From assembly GCF_001677475.2 (NCBI RefSeq), contig NZ_CP015229.1: 64,000 nt of DNA. One strand, 5' to 3'. This document shows positions 3,133 through 56,285 of this stretch, in pieces. Source of the DNA: Escherichia coli. Its GTDB lineage: Bacteria > Pseudomonadota > Gammaproteobacteria > Enterobacterales > Enterobacteriaceae. Position numbers and translations under genes: made by a program. The notes beneath the pieces are model-generated. The model made no database searches. It saw only the letters and a program-made list of their open reading frames with translations, and was not told the DNA's origin. Every line of letters starts with the position of its first letter. The first letter of the stretch is position 1.

Positions 3133-3207
3133 ATGACGTTGTCTCCTTATTTGCAAGAGGTGGCGAAGCGCCGCACTTTTGCCATTATTTCTCACCCCAA
3201 TAATTAA
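3133..3207 (+). pseudogene. prfC: Displaced 5' end of prfC (first ~21 codons) left at attL, running into phage DNA to a stop
   Basis: ATG at 3133 encodes [22 protein letters not shown] then diverges (NN*) after the att core; the full prfC is at 54307. Confidence 0.8.
3184..3197. other. attL core (ATTATTTCTCACCC), left prophage junction
   Basis: Identical 14-bp sequence recurs at 54355..54368 inside the intact prfC 5' end; flanking ~20 bp match with one mismatch. Confidence 0.75.
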
Positions 3208-3361: not shown

Positions 3362-3418
3362 TGTACATATGCTTGTACATAATGTACAAAGCAGCAGAGG
3401 TGTTTTGCGATTTGTACA
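3362..3418. promoter_or_regulatory. Cluster of four TGTACA-containing repeats (TTGTACATA / ATGTACAAA) between attL and int; candidate integrase arm-type sites
   Basis: ctgTACAtatgctTGTACATAATGTACAAAg ... tTGTACAag; the same 9-mers recur near attR (54172..54286). Confidence 0.4.
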
Positions 3419-3427
3419 AGGTGAGTA

Positions 3428-4663
3428 ATGGCGCTGTCTGATGCGTGGTTGCGTTCAGTCGTTGGAAAGGAACGTGATAAGGTTTTGGTTAAATCCGATC
3501 GTGATGGTCTGTCTGTCAGAGTATCACCGAAAGGTCGCGTAGTGTTCCAATATCGTTATCAATGGGCAGGGAAAGGTGAGCGCCTTGATATCGGAACTTA
3601 CCCGGCAACTGGATTAAAAGAGGCCAGAGAAGAAGTTATCCGTCTCCGTGGTGAACTCGAGTCAAACCGCAATCCACGATTAGTCAAGCAGGCTGAAAAA
3701 CGAAAAGCTACTGAAGCCATGACGGTAGAGTCTGTGATCCGTGCCTGGTATGAAGCATATTGTGTAAAAAATAAAAAAGGTTCTGAACAGATACTCCGCT
3801 CGTTTGAGCTGCACCTGTTCTCTAAAATCGGGAATATCCCTCACGATGCAGCTACATTGCATGATTGGTTAGAAGTCCTGGAGCCTCTTAGCACCAAGAC
3901 TCCAGCAATAGTAGACCGATTGCTAATTAACGCAAAGCAGGCTCATGTCTGGGCGTATAAGAGAAAGCTCATTGAAACTCGCCCACTGTCGGATATCACG
4001 GGTAAAGATATGGATATCCGTAAAGGTCAGAAAAAACGGTTTCTGACACATGATGAAATTAACATCCTTTATGCTGCGATCGATGGTTCTCGAATGGTTC
4101 CTAAATACCGAGCCTTCATTAAACTATTGCTGCATTTTGGTTGCCGTAGTTCAGAGCTAATTACTGCTAGGGTGGATGATTTTGATTTCATAAATAAGGT
4201 ATGGACTGTACCACCAGAACGACATAAGACTGGGGACATAACAGGCGAACCGCTAAAGCGGCCCATTATTGAACCGGTTGAAGAGCTTATAAAATACGTT
4301 ATCTCTATGAACAACGGTTCCGATATGCTTTTTACTAAGGAAGGAAGCAGGGAGCCAGTTGGTCGGACATCATTGCAGTCGCTGCCTTACAATTTAATGC
4401 AGTTCGCATGGCGACGTTTGGGGTATCAATTTCCTCATTGGTCTCTTCATGATTTGAGACGAACAGCACGAACAAACTTTTCTGATCTTACTGCTCCTCA
4501 TATTGCTGAAATAATGCTTGGTCATAAACTGCCAGGTGTATGGCAAGTTTATGATAAGAGCGATTATCTAGAAGAACAGCGTAAAGCTTACTGGGCATGG
4601 TGGGAGAGGGTTGAATCGATCGTTACTTGTACTGACTTAATCTCCAACGGACAGTTTGCGTAG
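3428..4663 (+). CDS. int: Tyrosine integrase, P4-type (N-terminal arm-binding domain plus catalytic domain)
   Basis: 411-aa ORF directly inside attL; C-terminal HDLRRTARTN and catalytic Y region typical of tyrosine recombinases; SD AAGGTGAG before ATG. Confidence 0.9.
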   Translation: MALSDAWLRSVVGKERDKVLVKSDRDGLSVRVSPKGRVVFQYRYQWAGKGERLDIGTYPATGLKEAREEVIRLRGELESNRNPRLVKQAEKRKATEAMTVESVIRAWYEAYCVKNKKGSEQILRSFELHLFSKIGNIPHDAATLHDWLEVLEPLSTKTPAIVDRLLINAKQAHVWAYKRKLIETRPLSDITGKDMDIRKGQKKRFLTHDEINILYAAIDGSRMVPKYRAFIKLLLHFGCRSSELITARVDDFDFINKVWTVPPERHKTGDITGEPLKRPIIEPVEELIKYVISMNNGSDMLFTKEGSREPVGRTSLQSLPYNLMQFAWRRLGYQFPHWSLHDLRRTARTNFSDLTAPHIAEIMLGHKLPGVWQVYDKSDYLEEQRKAYWAWWERVESIVTCTDLISNGQFA

Positions 4664-9032: not shown

Positions 9033-9725
9033 TTAATTGTGTCGCTTAAGGGTTTGTGACTGGCTGATTAAGACCTTTCCAAAGACCATAAACCGGTGTT
9101 CATTTTCGCTGGTAATTCCCCATTCACGGTAAATCTGGTTATCAGAAATCACCAGTAGTTTGTCAGGTATCATTTGCAGTCGTTTGACATAAATTTTATC
9201 ATCAAAACCAAATACATAGATACCATCTCCATCAAACTGATTGATACTGACATCAACGAAGATGAGATCTCCTGGCTCAATGGTTGGACACATACTGTCC
9301 CCACGAACGTTGATTACTTTAATGTGATTTGCTGGCCGTCCGCCAAACATCGATACAGCATTATCAGTTCTGTATTCAATGGCATGAATCACATCAATGA
9401 CATCACCGCCCTGGATAAGGCCATTTCCCGCACTGGCACTGATATCCAGCATTTCAATACGGAATACATCCTTCACCTGCGCAACATCCTCACTAATACT
9501 GTTTTTACATACAGTATTACTTTTGAAGTCTGAGGTAAAGAGATCAGCAATATCAACACCTAAGCTCCTGGCAATATTACTCAGGGCTTGTTCAGTGAAT
9601 TGTTTCTGCTTACCTGTTTCCAGGCGCGAGATATTTGCCGCATCCACTCCTATTGCTTCAGCGAGATCGGCGATTTTCATGTTCTTCGCTTGGCGAAGTT
9701 GTCTGACTCGATTTCCTATGTTCAT
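9033..9725 (-). CDS. CI-like repressor (N-terminal HTH, C-terminal S24/LexA-type autopeptidase)
   Basis: 230-aa ORF; HTH (MKIADLAEAIGVDAANISRLETGK) and S24 peptidase motifs (GDSM ... KRL). Confidence 0.85.
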   Translation of the reverse strand: MNIGNRVRQLRQAKNMKIADLAEAIGVDAANISRLETGKQKQFTEQALSNIARSLGVDIADLFTSDFKSNTVCKNSISEDVAQVKDVFRIEMLDISASAGNGLIQGGDVIDVIHAIEYRTDNAVSMFGGRPANHIKVINVRGDSMCPTIEPGDLIFVDVSINQFDGDGIYVFGFDDKIYVKRLQMIPDKLLVISDNQIYREWGITSENEHRFMVFGKVLISQSQTLKRHN

Positions 9726-10627: not shown

Positions 10628-10772
10628 ACAGTTTAACGGCAAATAACCGTTTGTCGCAACAGCTGGTGGTCAGCGTCTCTGAACACCTGTTGTTACGGCA
10701 TGAATGCAGATTACCAAATCACCAGGCTGTAAGTAACCACAGAGAACTTTACCTGACTGTGGGGGGCGAGTT

Positions 10773-47506: not shown

Positions 47507-50446
47507 ATGGCAGTAAAGATTTCAGGTGTACTGAAAGACGGCACAGGAAAACCGGTACAGAACTGCACAATCCAGCTGAAAGCAAAACGTAACAGCACCA
47601 CGGTGGTGGTGAACACGCTGGCCTCAGAAAATCCGGATGAAGCCGGGCGTTATAGCATGGACGTTGAGTACGGTCAGTACAGCGTTATTCTGTTGGTGGA
47701 AGGATGCCCGCCGTCACATGCCGGGACCATCACCGTGTATGAAGATTCCCGACCCGGTACGCTGAATGATTTTCTCGGTGCCATGACGGAGGATGATGCC
47801 CGTCCGGAGGCTCTGCGCCGTTTTGAACTGATGGTGGAAGAGGTGGCGCGTAACGCGTCCGCGGTGGCACAGAACACGGCAGCCGCGAAGAAGTCAGCCG
47901 GCGATGCCGGCACATCTGCCCGTGAGGCGGCAACCCATGCGACTGATGCTGCAGATTCAGCACGTGCAGCCAGCACGTCAGCCGGACAGGCCGCGACGTC
48001 AGCTCAGGAGGCTTTTTCCTGCGCAGGAACGGCATCAGCAAAAGCCTCTGAGGCATCAAAAAGTGCTGCCGCTGCAGAGTCCTCAAAAAGCGCGGCGGCC
48101 ACCAGTGCCGGTGCCGCGAAAACGTCTGAAACGAATGCTGCAGCGTCACAACAATCAGCAGCCACTTCTGCATCCACCGCGACCACGAAAGCGTCAGAAG
48201 CTGCCACCTCAGCCCGGGATGCGTCGGCTTCAAAAGAGGCGGCAAAATCATCAGAAACGAGCGCAGCCTCGAGCGCAAGTAGTTCCGCTTCCTCGGCAAC
48301 AGCGGCAGCAAATTCTGCGAAGGCGGCAAAAACGTCCGAGACGAACGCCAGGTCTTCTGAAACGGCAGCGGAACAGAGCGCCTCAGCTGCGGCAGGTTCA
48401 GAAACTACCGCTGCATCATCAGCCCGTGAGGCGTCAGTCAAAGCGGAGGAGGCTGCAGCCAGTGCCACTGCCGCCGGAAAATCGGCAGAAAGCGCCGCAT
48501 CATCCGCTTCAACAGCCACAACGAAGGCTGGCGAAGCCACTGAACAGGCCAGCGCAGCAGCGAGGTCAGCTTCCGCAGCGAAGACATCCGAAACGAACGC
48601 GAAAGCGTCGGAAACCAGCGCAGAATCCTCAAAAACGGCTGCCGCATCGTCCGCCAGTTCGGCGGCGTCATCGGCCTCATCGGCGTCTGCTTCAAAAGAT
48701 GAGGCGACCAGACAAGCGTCAGCAGCGAAGGGCAGCGCCACGACGGCATCCACGAAGGCAACAGAGGCTGCTGGCAGTGCGACGGCGGCAGCACAGAGCA
48801 AAAGTACGGCGGAATCCGCGGCAACGCGCGCCGAGACAGCGGCAAAACGGGCAGAGGATATTGCATCCGCCGTGGCGCTTGAGGATGCGAGCACGACGAA
48901 AAAGGGGATAGTACAGCTCAGCAGTGCGACCAACAGCACTTCCGAGTCACAGGCGGCAACGCCAAAGGCAGTAAAAGCAGCCAATGACAATGCTGAGAAA
49001 CGTCTGCAGAAAGATCAGAACGGTGCGGATATCCCTGGCAAAGACACCTTTACGAAAAATATTGGTGCCTGCCGTGCCTTCGGTGGGTCAGTAAGCACAA
49101 CAACAGGAAACTGGACGACTGCACAGTTTATCGAGTGGCTGGATTCTCAGGGAGCATTTAACCATCCATACTGGATGTGCAAGGGTTCCTGGTCTTATGG
49201 CAATAATAAAATCATTACTGATACTGGCTGCGGTAATATTCATCTCGCCGGAGCTGTCATTGAAGTAATGGGGATAAAGTCAGCGATGACGATCCGCATT
49301 ACCACTCCGACTACATCCAGCGGTGGCGGAACAACCAACGCCCAGTTTACCTATATTAATCACGGAACAGATTATTCACCTGGCTGGCGAAGGGACTATA
49401 ACTCCAGAAATAAGCCAACGGCATCAGAGATCGGGGCGCTACCGTCAGGTGGAACAGCAGTATCATCAGTTAATCTGGCTTCAAAAGGTCGGGTAGCCGC
49501 GCTGACAGACAATACGCAGGGGGCAGCAGGTCTTGAGTTATACGAGGTGTATAACAACGGATATCCAACAGCGTATGGAAATATCATTCACCTGAAAGGG
49601 ATGACAGCCGTTGGCGAAGGTGAGTTACTCATCGGCTGGAGTGGTACAAGCGGTGCTCATGCTCCGGCATTTATTCGTTCACGACGGGATACGACCGACG
49701 CAAACTGGTCGCCGTGGGCGCAGCTTTACACCTCGGCTCATCCTCCTGCAGAGTTTTATCCAGTCGGTGCACCAATCCCGTGGCCATCAGATACCGTTCC
49801 GTCTGGCTATGCCCTGATGCAGGGGCAGACTTTTGACAAATCTGCATACCCGAAACTTGCAGCGGCTTATCCGTCAGGCGTTATTCCTGATATGCGTGGC
49901 TGGACGATTAAGGGCAAGCCCGCCAGTGGTCGTGCCGTATTGTCTCAGGAACAGGACGGCATTAAATCGCACACCCACAGCGCCAGCGCATCCAGTACGG
50001 ATTTGGGGACGAAAACCACATCGTCGTTTGATTACGGCACTAAATCCACGAATAACACCGGTGCGCATACCCATAGTTTAAGTGGCAGCACGAATGCGGC
50101 TGGTAATCACAGCCATAGAGATGGCCGTCGATTTAACCCCAGTGTTTTTAAAGATACTTATCAATATGGTTATACAAGCTCAGGTCAAAATACCTGGGGG
50201 GTACAAGGCTCAGTAGGTATGTCTACGGGGTGGTTAGCTAATACCAGTACAGATGGTAATCATAGCCACTCACTGTCCGGTACAGCAGTATCTGCAGGTG
50301 CACACGCGCATACTGTCGGTATTGGTGCTCATACGCACTCCGTTGCGATAGGGTCACATGGACACACCATCACCGTTAACGCTGCTGGTAACGCGGAAAA
50401 CACCGTCAAAAACATCGCATTTAACTATATTGTGAGGCTTGCATGA
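47507..50446 (+). CDS. stf: Side tail fibre protein Stf (Ala/Ser-rich repeats; C-terminal HxH repeats)
   Basis: 979-aa ORF; long low-complexity central region; C-terminus [18 protein letters not shown]...[15 protein letters not shown] typical of lambda-type Stf. Confidence 0.85.
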
Positions 50447-51345
50447 TTACGCTCATTCTTTCTGCACCAGTAACAGAAATGGCTGAAGCATTTAAGCGGG
50501 TATTCGCAAATGCAGATAATGTGAATATTGTCGGAAAGCCATTTGAAACAATCAGGGAATTTGACTGCATGGTAAGTGCGGCAAACAGTTTCGGCCTGAT
50601 GGATGGCGGTGTTGATGCCGCCATTACCGCATTCTTCGGTACTCAGTTACAGTCCCGCGTTCAGAATCATATTCTTCGTGAATATCTCGGCGAGCAGCCT
50701 GTAGGTTCTGCATTTGTTATTGAAACGGGGCATAATCATCATCCCTGGCTGGTACATGCGCCAACAATGCGTGTTCCGCTGACAATTGACGGAACAGACG
50801 CTGTATATAACGCAACCTGGGCCGCTCTGCTTGCCATCTTTCAGCACAATAAACACGCAACGACAGACAGGAAAATAAAAACGGTGGTATTCCCTGCAAT
50901 GGGAGCCGGATGTGGTCAGGTGCCGTTTGAAAGTGTTGCCCGGCAGATGAAGCAGGCATGGGATAACTTTAATAAAAAAACAGAATCAATTAACTGGGAA
51001 TACGCACAATCCCGCCAGTCGGCAGTATTTGGCACATATGCATACTGTCCGGGTAATTCTGTTTGCCGTTATGCGGATACTAAATATATTGGATGCGGCG
51101 ATTATCGGACGTATTGCTCACGTTCCGGGCAGGTCTGTATTAACCCTGAACATCAGGCTGATGATGTACTGATACAACATCAGGCTAATAACCGGTTTCG
51201 CCCTGGTTCGCATATACACCGGATTAATCCAGAAAATCCCGTAGGTAATGTCATCTCTGGCGCACATAGCCACGGAAGTAGCATCGTTATTGGTGCTCAC
51301 ACCCATACGCTCAATAAACAATATTCTGTCTCTGATATTAAGTAG
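50443..51345 (+). CDS. Macro-domain (ADP-ribose binding/hydrolase-like) protein with tail-fibre-like His-repeat C-terminus, inserted between stf and tfa
   Basis: ATGA overlap with stf stop; macro motifs [18 protein letters not shown] and [14 protein letters not shown]; C-terminal [18 protein letters not shown] echoes the Stf C-terminus; stop 8 nt before tfa ATG. Confidence 0.6.
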
Positions 51346-51353
51346 AGGTGAAC

Positions 51354-51929
51354 ATGGATTTCAGAATGAGTGAACAACCACGGACCATAACAATTTATAA
51401 TCTGCTGGCCGGAACTAATGAATTTATTGGTGAAGGTGATGCATATATTCCGCCTCATACAGGTCTGCCAGCAAACAGTACCGATATTGCACCGCCAGAT
51501 ATTCCGGCTGGCTTTGTGGCTGTTTTCAACAGTGATGAGGCATCGTGGCATCTCGTTGAAGACCATCGGGGTAAAACCGTCTATGACGTGGCTTCCGGCG
51601 ACGCGTTATTTATTTCTGAACTTGGCCCATTACCGGAAAATGTCACTTGGTTATCCCCGGAAGGGGAGTTTCAGAAGTGGAACGGCACAGCCTGGGTGAA
51701 GGATACGGAAGCAGAAAAACTGTTCCGGATCCGGGAGGCGGAAGAAACAAAAAACAACCTGATGCAGGTAGCCAGTGAGCATATTGCGCCGCTTCAGGAT
51801 GCTGCAGATCTGGAAATTGCAACGGAGGAAGAAATCTCGTTGCTGGAAGCATGGAAAAAGTATCGGGTATTGCTGAACCGTGTTGATACGTCAACTGCAC
51901 AGGATATTGAATGGCCAGCACTGCCGTAG
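51354..51929 (+). CDS. tfa: Tail fibre assembly protein Tfa
   Basis: [41 protein letters not shown]... matches recalled lambda Tfa; SD GAGGTG upstream. Confidence 0.9.
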
Positions 51930-52026
51930 GGTAAAACATATAAATTCTATAATTAGATGTATCTTTCCATTTACGGCAAGGAAGGGGGCTTGGAAGACGT
52001 AAAGCATCTCACACCGAGATTATTTT

Positions 52027-52617
52027 TTATATGTCAGGTGTCTGAAGTTTTGCTTTGGCTCTTAAAATGGTTTGCCGCGAGGTTTTGAATTCCCGGGCAA
52101 TGGCACTTATACTTACACCTGACTTAATTCGTTCGAATACCACCTGTTTCTGTTCTTCATTTAACACAGGTGGTCGACCAAAACGTTTCCCTGCGCCCCG
52201 GGCTCTTACTATCCCGGAATGAGTGCGTTCAAGTAAAAGGTCTCGTTCAAATTCAGCGACTGCTGAAATTACTTGCATCATCATTTTTCCTGTTGGACTG
52301 GTCAGGTCAATGCCCCCCAATGCTAAGCAATGCACTCTGATACCTGTTTCGGTCAGTTGTTCCACTGTTTTCCTGATATCCATTGCATTACAACCAAGGC
52401 GATCCAGTTTTGTCACAATCAATTGATCACCACATTTCAGGCGAGCAAGCAACCGGTTAAAACCAGGACGCTCACTGGTTGCTGCTGAGCCGCTAATGTG
52501 TTCTTCGATTATTTGCTGAGGTTTGATTTTAAAACCTGCACTTTCGATTTCCCGGCGTTGATTTTCGGGGGTCTGATCCAGCGTTGATATCCGACAGTAA
52601 GCAAAAATTCGAGACAT
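52027..52617 (-). CDS. pin: Serine recombinase / DNA invertase (Pin/Hin/Gin family)
   Basis: 196-aa [18 protein letters not shown]... with catalytic Ser motif and C-terminal HTH; adjacent to tfa as in e14/Rac/Qin. Confidence 0.88.
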
Positions 52618-52996
52618 AGTGAGACTCTATACGAAATTGGTGTACATATCATAATGCATATCCAAAAATTATTTCGCTTATTATTGTACATATTTGTATG
52701 TATACGTTCGAAAATAAACGAATTCGGATGCAGTCCCGTAATTTTGGTGTAACCAAAAATCGATTTTTTGAAAAATGGCTTTAACTCGGTTTGTTTTTCG
52801 AACTCCGGGCGGACTCGAGGAAGACGAATAATAGTGTTGTATGTTATTTTAACCAGATTTTAAGTTGTTTGGTCGTGGAAAAGTGGAGCAAAATGTTGTT
52901 AAAGTGGAAAAATGGTAAAAAAAGTAGGTTGTTGCGGAATAACGTAGTTGTTGATATTTTTTTAATGCATTGAAAAATTATTTTTCAGGGGGGGTA

Positions 52997-53230
52997 TTAC
53001 ACTTTACCATTTAAATTTTGGTTGTCTTTAAGAACTGATATCGCTGTTTGTAATAATTCTTTGTTATCCAGCCATGACTTTTTCTTTATGTTTCCTTCAA
53101 TGTAATCAAGCAATGTTCTGGTATTGATAGGTCTTCCCTGTTTTGCTACTTCCACGACAGCATCTCCCAGGATAATTCTGACTTCAGGAAGCTGCGCAGG
53201 GAACCACTTTAGGGTGTCTTTTGATTTCAT
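52997..53230 (-). CDS. YdfK/YnaE-like cold-shock-induced prophage protein
   Basis: MKSKDTLKWFPAQLPEVRIILGDAVVEVAKQGRPINTRTLLDYIEGNIKK...; matches recalled YdfK; start trimmed to internal Met. Confidence 0.75.
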   Translation of the reverse strand: MKSKDTLKWFPAQLPEVRIILGDAVVEVAKQGRPINTRTLLDYIEGNIKKKSWLDNKELLQTAISVLKDNQNLNGKV

Positions 53231-53298
53231 GAAGATATTCCTTAAAATATTATTGGTTTTCATTGCAATATTGTATGTCTGATTCAGGATATGTTGAC

Positions 53299-53412
53299 TT
53301 ATACATCGGTTTTGTCCGGGTTATTGGATATGCCAATCCCTAATTTTATTAGAGCATGACCAAAAATGCTGAATATGATAAGTAGTGAAGTGATTATCAG
53401 TATGCTGTTCAT
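53299..53412 (-). CDS. Hypothetical 37-aa hydrophobic membrane peptide (type I toxin-like)
   Basis: Hand-translated [37 protein letters not shown]; SD GAGG 4 nt upstream; TTGTCA/TATATA promoter-like elements upstream. Confidence 0.3.
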
Positions 53413-53838
53413 ATAGCCTCGAATTAGTATGGTGTTATATATAATATAGTTGACAATTTTTATCCTGGGTGTTCTTAAAGTTCGTAGATGAACCCTGTAG
53501 TTTCAGGTATACAGGAATGCTTACAGATAGCGGCAAAAGTCAGGAGGTTAATGGCGCAAACTGAAGGGGTAGCTGCGAACTAACTTAGGTAGAGACTCTA
53601 CACGGATTCGGTTTAAAAGTATACATAGATAACAATTTTTATCTGAAGAAGAAAAATATTAAGGTGATATGGTCATATATACTTTAATGCGGAAGAATGA
53701 ATGTGATGAGAGTGCTGTATCTGAATGGTTGAAAAACCGCAGACACGTCGTATGCAAGAACGTGCTGCGGTTGGCTGGTGAACTTCCGATAGTGCGAGTA
53801 TTGAATGATTTCCAGCCGTTACCGATTTTACGTGTTAA

Positions 53839-54087
53839 TTAGTGAACAAACCACTCGTCAGCAGACTCCCAGGTATCTTTCAGAGTTTCCTGAACAAAAG
53901 TTTTAGCTGAATCTTTATCGGCGGTGCGCGTAACAGAAAGGCCATCGTTGCTGGTGGCTTTTACGATCACCTCTACATCGTCATAACGCTTACTGATGCG
54001 TCGAGTTAATTCTTCCTTTAACGCATCCACAGCACCGTTTGGCATTTTAGTCATTTTCTCTTTGGCTATGCAGATCTCAATACGCAT
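53839..54087 (-). CDS. dinI: DinI-family damage-inducible protein
   Basis: 82-aa [13 protein letters not shown]...[11 protein letters not shown] matching the DinI family; two LexA boxes upstream. Confidence 0.85.
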
Positions 54088-54102
54088 AAAAATCCCTCTA
54101 CA

Positions 54103-54146
54103 CTGTGTTTGTATACAGTGTTATTTTTAACTGTATGAATAAACAG
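54103..54146. promoter_or_regulatory. Two tandem LexA boxes (CTGT-N8-ACAG) in the dinI-like promoter
   Basis: CACTGTGTTTGTATACAGTG at 54101..54120 and AACTGTATGAATAAACAGTG at 54129..54148. Confidence 0.75.
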
Positions 54147-54171
54147 TGTCAATAGAACAAAGATTGCTGCA

Positions 54172-54286
54172 TGTACAAATGTTCTTTGGCTACAAATACA
54201 CCTACTGATCATGTTCTGCTATGCTCTGATACCTCCAAAATGTACAATCAGCGGCATGAATTTTTCTTTGTACATATGATTGTACA
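54172..54286. promoter_or_regulatory. TGTACA-containing repeats near attR (ATGTACAAA, TTGTACATA x2); candidate arm-type sites overlapping the phage-borne prfC promoter region
   Basis: Same 9-mers as at 3362..3418 near attL. Confidence 0.4.
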
Positions 54287-54306
54287 TAATCAAAGAGACA
54301 ACAATT

Positions 54307-55893
54307 ATGACAAGCCTTTTGGCCGCAGAGGTAGCGAAAAGAAGAACCTTTGCAATTATTTCTCACCCGGACGCCGGTAAAACAACCATCACCGAGAAGG
54401 TGCTGCTGTTCGGACAGGCCATTCAGACCGCCGGTACAGTAAAAGGCCGTGGCTCTAACCAGCACGCTAAGTCGGACTGGATGGAGATGGAAAAGCAGCG
54501 TGGGATCTCCATTACCACGTCTGTGATGCAGTTTCCGTATCACGACTGCCTGGTTAACCTGCTCGACACCCCGGGGCACGAAGACTTCTCGGAAGATACC
54601 TATCGTACTCTGACGGCGGTGGACTGCTGCCTGATGGTTATCGACGCTGCAAAAGGTGTTGAAGATCGTACCCGCAAGCTGATGGAAGTTACCCGTCTGC
54701 GCGACACGCCGATCCTCACCTTTATGAACAAACTTGACCGTGATATCCGCGACCCGATGGAGCTGCTCGATGAAGTTGAGAACGAGCTGAAAATCGGCTG
54801 TGCACCGATCACCTGGCCGATTGGCTGCGGCAAGCTGTTTAAAGGCGTTTACCACCTTTATAAAGATGAAACCTATCTTTATCAGAGCGGTAAAGGCCAC
54901 ACCATTCAGGAAGTCCGCATTGTTAAAGGGCTGAATAACCCGGATCTCGATGCTGCGGTTGGTGAAGATCTGGCGCAGCAGCTGCGTGACGAACTGGAAC
55001 TGGTGAAAGGCGCGTCTAACGAGTTCGACAAAGAGCTGTTCCTTGCGGGCGAAATCACTCCGGTATTCTTCGGTACTGCGCTGGGTAACTTCGGCGTTGA
55101 TCATATGCTGGATGGCCTGGTGGAGTGGGCCCCTGCGCCGATGCCGCGTCAGACTGATACCCGTACCGTAGAGGCGAGCGAAGACAAATTTACCGGCTTC
55201 GTATTTAAAATTCAGGCCAACATGGACCCGAAACACCGCGACCGCGTGGCGTTTATGCGTGTGGTGTCCGGTAAATATGAAAAAGGCATGAAGCTGCGCC
55301 AGGTGCGTACTGCGAAAGATGTGGTGATCTCCGACGCGCTGACCTTTATGGCGGGTGACCGTTCGCACGTTGAAGAAGCGTATCCTGGCGATATCCTCGG
55401 CCTGCACAACCACGGCACCATTCAGATCGGCGACACCTTTACCCAGGGTGAGATGATGAAGTTCACCGGTATTCCGAACTTCGCGCCAGAACTGTTCCGT
55501 CGTATCCGCCTGAAAGATCCGCTGAAGCAAAAACAGCTGCTTAAAGGGCTGGTACAGCTTTCCGAAGAGGGCGCGGTGCAGGTGTTCCGTCCGATCTCCA
55601 ACAACGATCTGATCGTTGGTGCGGTTGGTGTGCTGCAGTTTGATGTGGTGGTAGCGCGTCTGAAGAGCGAATACAACGTTGAAGCAGTGTATGAGTCAGT
55701 CAACGTTGCCACTGCCCGCTGGGTAGAATGTGCGGACGCGAAGAAATTCGAAGAGTTCAAGCGTAAGAACGAAAGCCAACTGGCGCTTGATGGCGGCGAT
55801 AACCTCGCTTACATCGCTACCAGCATGGTCAATCTGCGCCTGGCGCAGGAACGTTATCCGGACGTTCAGTTCCACCAGACCCGCGAGCATTAA
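54307..55893 (+). CDS. prfC: Peptide chain release factor 3 (RF3), reconstituted with a phage-derived 5' end
   Basis: [27 protein letters not shown]... with GTPase motifs; first ~16 codons come from the prophage side of attR. Confidence 0.92.
54355..54368. other. attR core (ATTATTTCTCACCC) within prfC codons 17-21
   Basis: Exact copy of the 14-bp sequence at 3184..3197. Confidence 0.75.
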
Positions 55894-56285
55894 TTCTTGC
55901 CTCCAGGGCGCGGTAGCCGCTGCGCCCTGTCAATTTCCCTTCCTTATTAGCCGCTTACGGAATGTTCTTAAAACATTCACTTTTGCTTATGTTTTCGCTG
56001 ATATCCCGAGCGGTTTCAAAATTGTGATCTATATTTAACAAAGTAATGACATTTCTGACGGCGTTAAATACCGTTCAATGCGTAGATATCAGTATCTAAA
56101 GCCGTCGATTGTCATTCTACCGATATTAATAACTGATTCAGAGGCTGTAATGGTCGTTATTCATCACCCATCGCTTTTGTGATGGCGACCATTGACTTCT
56201 GTAGAGGGTGAAGTCTCTCCCTATTCAGCAATGCAACCTCGTGTTGCCAGGCTCAAATTACGAGCAAACATACAGGAATAAATCG

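Follow-up and report, generated by a model that had tools for sequence, protein, structure and literature searches.

We analyzed a 64,000-nucleotide stretch of the Escherichia coli contig NZ_CP015229.1 (NCBI RefSeq assembly GCF_001677475.2), referred to below as the window, which holds a 51-kb lambda-like prophage integrated in prfC. At the right edge of this prophage, beside attR, lies a minus-strand dinI-like gene preceded by its own promoter and two LexA boxes and followed by an intrinsic terminator; this unit, here called the dinI cassette, is our subject. The first-pass annotation, made by a model from the letters alone, had described a prophage-borne dinI homologue with two good, tandem LexA boxes, under SOS control, next to attR and just upstream of a phage-supplied prfC 5' region.

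A dinI-like gene behind two LexA boxes

The assignment of the gene holds, as three comparisons of its product agree. The product covers the entire Pfam DinI profile PF06183 (positions 1-63 of 63; E = 1.2e-19, 70.8 bits against a cutoff of 24.2), matches PHROG 189, "RecA filament binding protein DinI" (E = 4.4e-31), and aligns over its full length with the structurally solved E. coli DinI (PDB 1GHH; E = 7.9e-13, 38 identities in 83 positions, or 46%), keeping in this alignment the acidic C-terminal helix TWESAD(E/D)WFV that is implicated in RecA binding. Judged by these matches, it is a DinI-family protein, and by analogy with its characterized relative it quite probably binds RecA filaments. 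The PHROG 189 profile has 151 positions, and the product aligns to positions 71-149 only; the family evidently contains both stand-alone DinI proteins and longer members with an extra N-terminal half, such as Tum of phage 186.

Directly upstream of the gene, two sequences match the LexA core pattern CTGT-N8-ACAG, which occurs five times in the window against 0.77 expected, a count that none of 100 shuffles reached. For the purpose of grading such matches, we used a heterology index (HI) matrix, in which lower values denote better sites, rebuilt from 29 E. coli LexA operators; its scores correlate with published HI values (table in PMC11228462) with a Spearman coefficient of 0.93. The 20-mer of the distal box, AACTGTATGAATAAACAGTG, scores 4.55 and that of the proximal box, CACTGTGTTTGTATACAGTG, scores 6.26, both within the range of the recA, dinI, cho and ruvA operators; the operator consensus against which such sites are judged is TACTG(TA)5CAGTA. 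The best unrelated LexA-like site in the window has an HI of 10.75, and the core-pattern matches at 10727 and 38032, with an HI of about 16, are chance occurrences. Three sites in the window have an HI of 6.3 or lower, as opposed to none in any of 300 first-order Markov simulations, the lowest simulated value being 6.75. By sequence, therefore, the two boxes are of genuine operator quality, far beyond chance. The box scoring that the first-pass annotation had put forward as a check thus bears out its claim of two good boxes. Its word "tandem" does not stand, since the boxes are separate, neither abutting nor overlapping: their centers lie 28 bp apart, or about 2.7 helical turns.

On the minus strand the region reads TTGACA-CTGTTTATTCATACAG-TT-AAAAAT-AA-CACTGTATACAAACACAGTG-TA-GAGGG-ATTTTT-ATG (Table 1). 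In a promoter scan, TTGACA and AAAAAT, separated by 18 nt, match the consensus at 10 of 12 positions and form the sole good promoter reading into dinI. The distal box occupies the spacer between the -35 and -10 hexamers and touches the former, while the proximal box starts 2 nt past the -10 hexamer and spans the predicted transcription start. Such a placement, with one operator in the spacer and the other on the start site, fits promoter occlusion, and the two LexA dimers would probably act as independent blocks rather than as a cooperative pair.

At its other end the unit is closed by a terminator that begins 67 nt past the dinI stop codon, within a 131-nt stretch folding at -31.9 kcal/mol (z = -3.06). 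Because this hairpin follows the gene, the unit is predicted to be monocistronic, with a transcript of about 390 nt. A scan of 50000-56000 for structured or small RNAs with Rfam returned only an IS009 match (below) and one sub-threshold CssrB match at 53632-53769, which, at 24 bits against a gathering score of 76, we treated as chance. We also rejected a plus-strand open reading frame (ORF) of 57 aa at 53669-53842, which overlaps the dinI stop codon by 4 nt and has a shorter form labeled "hypothetical protein" in phage PhiR63_1: lacking any Pfam or PHROG family and running opposite to the dinI terminator, it is unlikely to be a gene.

The cassette is widespread. Its 314 nt of promoter and gene occur in 1695 of 5426 complete E. 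coli genomes, in up to seven copies per genome, where the gene is annotated as "DinI-like family protein". They are identical or near-identical in phages 2H10, cdtI, mEp460 and PhiR63_1, and with PhiR63_1 and 2H10 ("Lambda_2H10", genus Glaedevirus) the wider region is shared at 99.5-99.9% up to the att core; in both of these genomes, dinI is the final gene before attP and int. Across the phage collection, cdtI, mEp460, VT1-Sakai and many Stx1a-, Stx2a- and Stx2c-converting phages encode the protein at 94-100% identity, and dinI is nearly always found at the far right of the phage record. These lambdoid cassettes (VT1-Sakai H0001, BP-4795 ORF85 and those of cdtI, mEp460, 2H10, PhiR63_1 and the Stx1 and Stx2 phages) equal ours in gene, orientation, promoter and attR-side position, with protein identities of 94-100% in most and 60% in BP-4795.

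The operators are conserved along with the gene. Of 80 IMG/VR loci sampled, the 55 whose upstream sequence reaches 100 nt or more served for the box counts; all 55 carry both boxes, 54 of them at the 28-bp spacing, and the variation falls mostly in the N8 centers, the commonest variants having an HI of 5.6 (distal) and 3.5 (proximal). The scans for related dinI and cI loci returned only relatives at 98-100% identity, and the wider diversity described here comes from tblastn searches of the phage collection and from individual records. Similarity between loci starts exactly at the -35 hexamer, upstream of which at least five unrelated sequences are found; this indicates that promoter, operators and gene move together as one module, which is independent of the integration module. 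With its own promoter and terminator, and a homology block that runs from the -35 hexamer to about 53737 amid at least five different flanks, the cassette qualifies as a moron, an autonomous accessory transcription unit.

At only 69.5% protein identity, PhiR12_5 carries the same promoter; its two boxes score HI 4.3 and 6.3. In Klebsiella P18-100, Kp4884-1, PHB10 and Gifsy-2 (42-68% identity), a single box lies 14-19 nt from the ATG, and in YeP1, where dinI follows another ORF, there is no box. The VT1-Sakai and BP-4795 variant keeps the architecture but has weaker boxes (both HI 7.4-10). The VT1-Sakai record AP000400 already annotates, on the homologous cassette, a "putative promoter of H0001 and H0002 genes" and a "LexA protein, putative SOS box"; the latter is the proximal box, and the distal one is unmarked. 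A second gene, H0002, is thus annotated on the shared promoter in VT1-Sakai, whereas the unit in our window stops at the terminator.

Table 1. Features of the dinI cassette and its surroundings (coordinates are those of the window).
Feature	Coordinates	Strand	Basis and remarks
dinI-like coding sequence, 82 aa	53839-54087 (stop included)	-	ORF list, Pfam, PHROG, 1GHH alignment
Shine-Dalgarno sequence GAGGG	54094-54098	-	Read from sequence; 6 nt before ATG; kept in related loci
Promoter-proximal LexA box CACTGTATACAAACACAGTG	54101-54120 (core 54103-54118)		Pattern match, HI 6.26; 13 nt upstream of ATG
-10 hexamer AAAAAT	54123-54128 (alternative register TAAAAA, 54124-54129)	-	Promoter scan
Promoter-distal LexA box CACTGTTTATTCATACAGTT	54129-54148 (core 54131-54146)		Pattern match, HI 4.55
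-35 hexamer TTGACA	54147-54152	-	Promoter scan; homology between cassettes starts here
Intrinsic terminator, 14-bp stem with one bulge, then UUUUU	53730-53772	-	RNA fold
Four TGTACAWA repeats between dinI promoter and prfC	54172-54288		Putative integrase arm-type sites, attP P arm
Phage-supplied prfC 5' end, 47 nt coding	54308-54354	+	attL/attR alignment, ORF list
attR core ATTATTTCTCACCC, 14 bp	54355-54368		Exact repeat search; attL copy 3184-3197
Pin-type serine invertase	52027-52617	-	
YnaE/YdfK-like ORF, PHROG 2718	52997-53263	-	
YnaM/YnfT-family ORF, 37 aa	53299-53412	-	Pfam, E = 5.2e-27

The prophage edge, prfC and neighboring genes

The position of the cassette next to attR is established by the 14-bp core repeat, whose two copies bound the prophage and whose attR copy lies 268 bp from the dinI gene. 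In line with this, the ends of the 2H10 and PhiR63_1 phage records map to 54368-54370, and Stx2c phage records carry an annotated "duplication due to insertion" of 14 bp. Next to attL lies the tyrosine integrase (3428-4663), which has an Arm-DNA-binding domain. An alignment of attL and attR shows divergent prfC 5' ends, in agreement with the earlier description of a phage-supplied 5' region: the phage contributes the first 47 nt of prfC and the DNA upstream, with codons that differ from the native ones at attL, where the native start is left as a stump (3133-3183). At the protein level, the native N-terminus MTLSPYLQE is exchanged for MTSLLAAE, one residue fewer.

The motif TGTACAWA occurs 12 times in the window against 2.9 expected, with eight of the 12 copies lying no more than about 230 bp from one or the other att core. 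These eight lie on the phage side of attL (3362-3418) and of attR (the four listed in Table 1), and are, by motif and position, probably arm-type sites of the prfC-specific integrase. We also observed a mosaic junction at about 53737: Stx2c- and Stx1a-converting phages share 53737-54400 with our prophage at 96.5%, but not the ynaM/ynaE side. The shared block comprises the terminator, dinI, its promoter, the attP arm and the att core, and given where it ends, the dinI-attP block appears to be exchanged as a unit among prfC-integrating phages.

Between the tail-fiber genes and dinI lies a minus-strand module of three genes (52027-53412; Table 1). One of them encodes a Pin-type invertase, and no inverted repeats of at least 20 nt that would mark an invertible tail-fiber segment were found in 49500-52100. 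The other two are small ORFs related to ynaE and ynaM; upstream of the latter, about 250 nt of untranslated sequence is preceded by a weak promoter-like site at 53647-53618. A full-length plus-strand match to Rfam IS009 (RF02111), scoring 220.9 bits against a gathering score of 117, was found at 51697-51895, toward the 3' end of the tail-fiber-assembly gene region and right before the invertase gene.

Regulation, role and alternative explanations

Several known systems provide a frame in which to read the cassette. The chromosomal dinI of E. coli and Salmonella is LexA-regulated, and its protein is 46% identical to that of the cassette; the cassette differs in being phage-borne and in having two good operators rather than one. 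In E. coli, the chromosomal gene has a single LexA box in the operator list behind our matrix. For S. Typhimurium, the dinI boxes are listed with HI values of 4.0 and 17.6 (PMC8072944).

A close parallel among prophages is the dinI-antirepressor-irsA operon of Gifsy-1, -2 and -3 (Lemire, Figueroa-Bossi & Bossi 2011), in which dinI likewise sits right behind a LexA box and is damage-induced. Tagged DinI of these prophages accumulates after mitomycin C (PMC3121763), and nalidixic acid induces the Gifsy dinI homologues 4.6-23-fold, their single boxes having an HI of 3.9-5.3 (PMC8072944). The Gifsy protein is 42% identical to that of the cassette, and by our matrix Gifsy-2 has one box, 19 nt from the ATG, with an HI of about 2.8. 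The two arrangements differ in location, the Gifsy genes belonging to the early region, where they come downstream of those for replication, rather than beside attP, and in what follows: the Gifsy dinI genes head an operon encoding the antirepressors GfoA and GftA (PMC3121763), which drive the induction of prophages whose repressors are uncleaved, whereas here dinI is followed by a terminator and the CI repressor is of the self-cleaving type. A second group consists of Tum of coliphage 186 and the split tum of PSP3 and Fels-2, LexA-controlled phage genes with a DinI-like domain (PMC3121763). Like the cassette protein, they belong to PHROG 189, but their DinI part is fused to or downstream of an antirepressor, while in the cassette it stands alone.

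With regard to operator number, the cassette resembles SOS promoters that have more than one LexA operator; its boxes are 28 bp apart, in contrast to the overlapping pairs of the colicin genes. Such multi-operator promoters include those of lexA, recN and ydjM besides the colicin genes with two overlapping boxes, and are generally linked to tight repression.

Taken together, operator quality, placement and conservation argue that the cassette is, very probably, LexA-repressed, damage-induced and hence SOS-controlled, and we strongly infer from the sequence that LexA occupies both operators. We propose that it is a self-contained, LexA-repressed accessory gene beside attP of a lambdoid phage of the 2H10/mEp460/cdtI type, and a position beside attP in the phage becomes one beside attR in the prophage. 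While lysogeny lasts, LexA dimers on the two operators would block the promoter at two points, independently of the phage CI. Upon DNA damage, RecA filaments would stimulate LexA self-cleavage, the operators would clear, and an mRNA of about 390 nt ending at the hairpin would be made. Its DinI-like product would bind RecA filaments, stabilizing them and limiting their co-protease activity toward slowly cleaved proteins such as UmuD. The phage's own CI is also a plausible restrained substrate: the cI gene (9033-9725, minus strand, followed by cro-like and cII-like genes) encodes a helix-turn-helix (HTH) domain and a Peptidase_S24 domain (E = 6.6e-19), and given the latter, induction should follow the lambda paradigm of RecA-stimulated self-cleavage, with no antirepressor needed. 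Late SOS functions and prophage induction would thereby be braked or tuned in a dose-dependent manner.

Some points weigh against this reading, both in its regulatory part and in the role assigned to the protein. The HI matrix is our own reconstruction from 29 operators, even though it tracks published values; the -10 element is weak in either register (AAAAAT or TAAAAA) and the spacer measures 18 nt; and the proximal box, with an HI of 6.3, is poorer here than the commonest variant among related loci. According to published biochemistry, host DinI can stabilize or inhibit RecA functions depending on its dose. As for phage-borne DinI, non-polar deletions of dinI in Gifsy-1 and Gifsy-3 brought no measurable change in induction (PMC3121763). 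We therefore separate the two parts, and only tentatively suggest, by analogy, that the net effect is a restraint of RecA co-protease activity, in the sense in which DinI is described as switching SOS off by inhibiting the RecA co-protease (Yasuda 1998, in the passage of PMC10575684 that cites it).

The effect could also run in the opposite direction. If filament stabilization prolonged the co-protease signal and so committed the lysogen to CI cleavage under strong SOS, the DinI-like protein would promote induction, with regulation exactly as described above, and the regulatory evidence serves this explanation equally well. DinI is indeed said to stabilize RecA filaments, in the passage of PMC3121763 that refers to its reference 27, and the CI of our prophage is of the RecA-dependent, self-cleaving type. 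The description of DinI as an SOS off-switch and the lack of an effect of the Gifsy deletions both speak against a booster, which we regard as possible but rather unlikely; the sequence itself does not discriminate between brake and booster.

A different extension would bring prfC under the same control. The prophage separates prfC from its native promoter by 51 kb, so that its transcription must start in the 220-bp region shared with the dinI promoter, and it might be reasoned that the LexA boxes govern a divergent, phage-supplied prfC promoter as well, making release factor 3 SOS-responsive in lysogens. The boxes, however, stop 160 bp upstream of the prfC ATG, and they are kept in the cassettes of phages integrated at other sites. 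We found no strong sigma-70 promoter in the 155 nt that the phage supplies upstream of the new prfC ATG; the best plus-strand candidates are weak (at most 8 of 12 consensus matches) and lie at 54251-54308, clear of the boxes. SOS control of prfC is accordingly quite improbable.

It is still harder to read the palindromes as anything other than LexA sites, whether as recombination-arm sites for Int, Xis and IHF, as phage-repressor operators or as a bidirectional terminator. They do lie some 210-250 bp from the att core, and a terminator scan flags the proximal palindrome plus a T-run on the plus strand; this "terminator" (54100-54121), consisting of the LexA palindrome and the complement of the -10 A-run with only three G-C pairs, was rejected as an artefact. 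The palindromes match the LexA consensus far beyond chance and stay with the dinI promoter behind at least five unrelated flanks and different att modules, which argues that they are not att-arm sites, and the arm-type repeat at this locus is another motif, TGTACAWA. We consider this explanation very improbable.

Finally, although Gifsy prophages have a dinI-antirepressor-irsA operon behind a LexA box (PMC3121763), Gifsy-2 has two more same-strand genes after dinI and the partial PHROG 189 alignment would fit fused Tum-like forms, the idea that the cassette is the first gene of such an operon, delivering an inducing antirepressor, is made very improbable by the strong terminator after dinI, by the absence of any credible same-strand ORF beyond it (those present encode 32-33 aa), by the S24 self-cleavage domain of CI and by the end of Stx2c-phage similarity just beyond the terminator.

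A LexA box inside cI and the meaning of the cassette

The best LexA site in the window lies not at dinI but within cI: TACTGTATGTAAAAACAGTA, at 9497-9516, has an HI of 2.6 and spans nt 210-229 of cI, which encode part of the linker joining the HTH domain to the S24 domain. A box occurs at the same position in the cI genes of SfII (HI 1.3), ST64B (4.4), Klebsiella phage 1 LV-2017 (3.7), Eeyore (4.1) and Fels-1 (4.6), homologues with 51-97% protein identity, Fels-1 being at 51%, whereas cI homologues at about 43% identity (PhiR47_2, HK022 and ST101-KPC2phi6.1) have none. All six cI genes agree in each of the ten bases of the core (TACTGT and CAGT), compared with 10 of 30 invariant columns just upstream. 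The codons over the box vary in the amino acid they specify (N, T or D before it; N, H, S or Y within it) but retain the third-position base that the box needs, and since the amino acids vary while the box bases stay, this points to selection on the DNA motif rather than on the protein.

In all six genes, TACTGT is preceded on the sense strand by a -35-like hexamer (TTTACC, as in our prophage, TTTACA or TTTTCA) at a distance of exactly 17 nt, an arrangement shared with the dinI promoters of Gifsy-2 and Kp4884-1, which have a single box. Within 10-15 codons past the box come in-frame GTG or TTG codons, accompanied by Shine-Dalgarno-like runs that vary, and a terminator comes directly after cI. 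The box may possibly mark an internal promoter derepressed by SOS, perhaps for a truncated CI devoid of its DNA-binding domain, or a site where LexA acts as a roadblock to transcription of cI. We found no description of a LexA site inside cI in the searchable literature, which mostly excludes subscription journals and so makes this weak evidence.

The dinI cassette and the cI box could together form a two-arm LexA wiring over RecA-dependent CI cleavage, an idea we put forward as speculative and on balance unlikely. If it were true, LexA cleavage would at once free a RecA-filament modulator, the DinI-like protein, and alter cI expression; LexA, alongside CI cleavage, would set the timing of the lysis-lysogeny decision, and the multiple dinI copies of many E. 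coli genomes could couple co-resident prophages. The cI-internal operator, in the clade of mEp460/SfII, ST64B, Fels-1 and Klebsiella prophages, is a more promising lead than the dinI cassette.

The dinI cassette itself is common and already annotated in related phages, and in that sense it is known. The refinement is that good operators number two in the widespread E. coli cassette, against one in distant homologues and one marked in the old annotation. Confirmation mainly tidies the annotation: two operators, a monocistronic unit and exact att and prfC boundaries. A genome-association study has linked a prophage DinI-like gene to the evolution of quinolone resistance (PMC10575684). About one third of complete E. 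coli genomes carry between one and seven extra dinI copies under predicted LexA control, which may bear on RecA activity, mutagenesis, Stx-phage induction and quinolone survival in this species.

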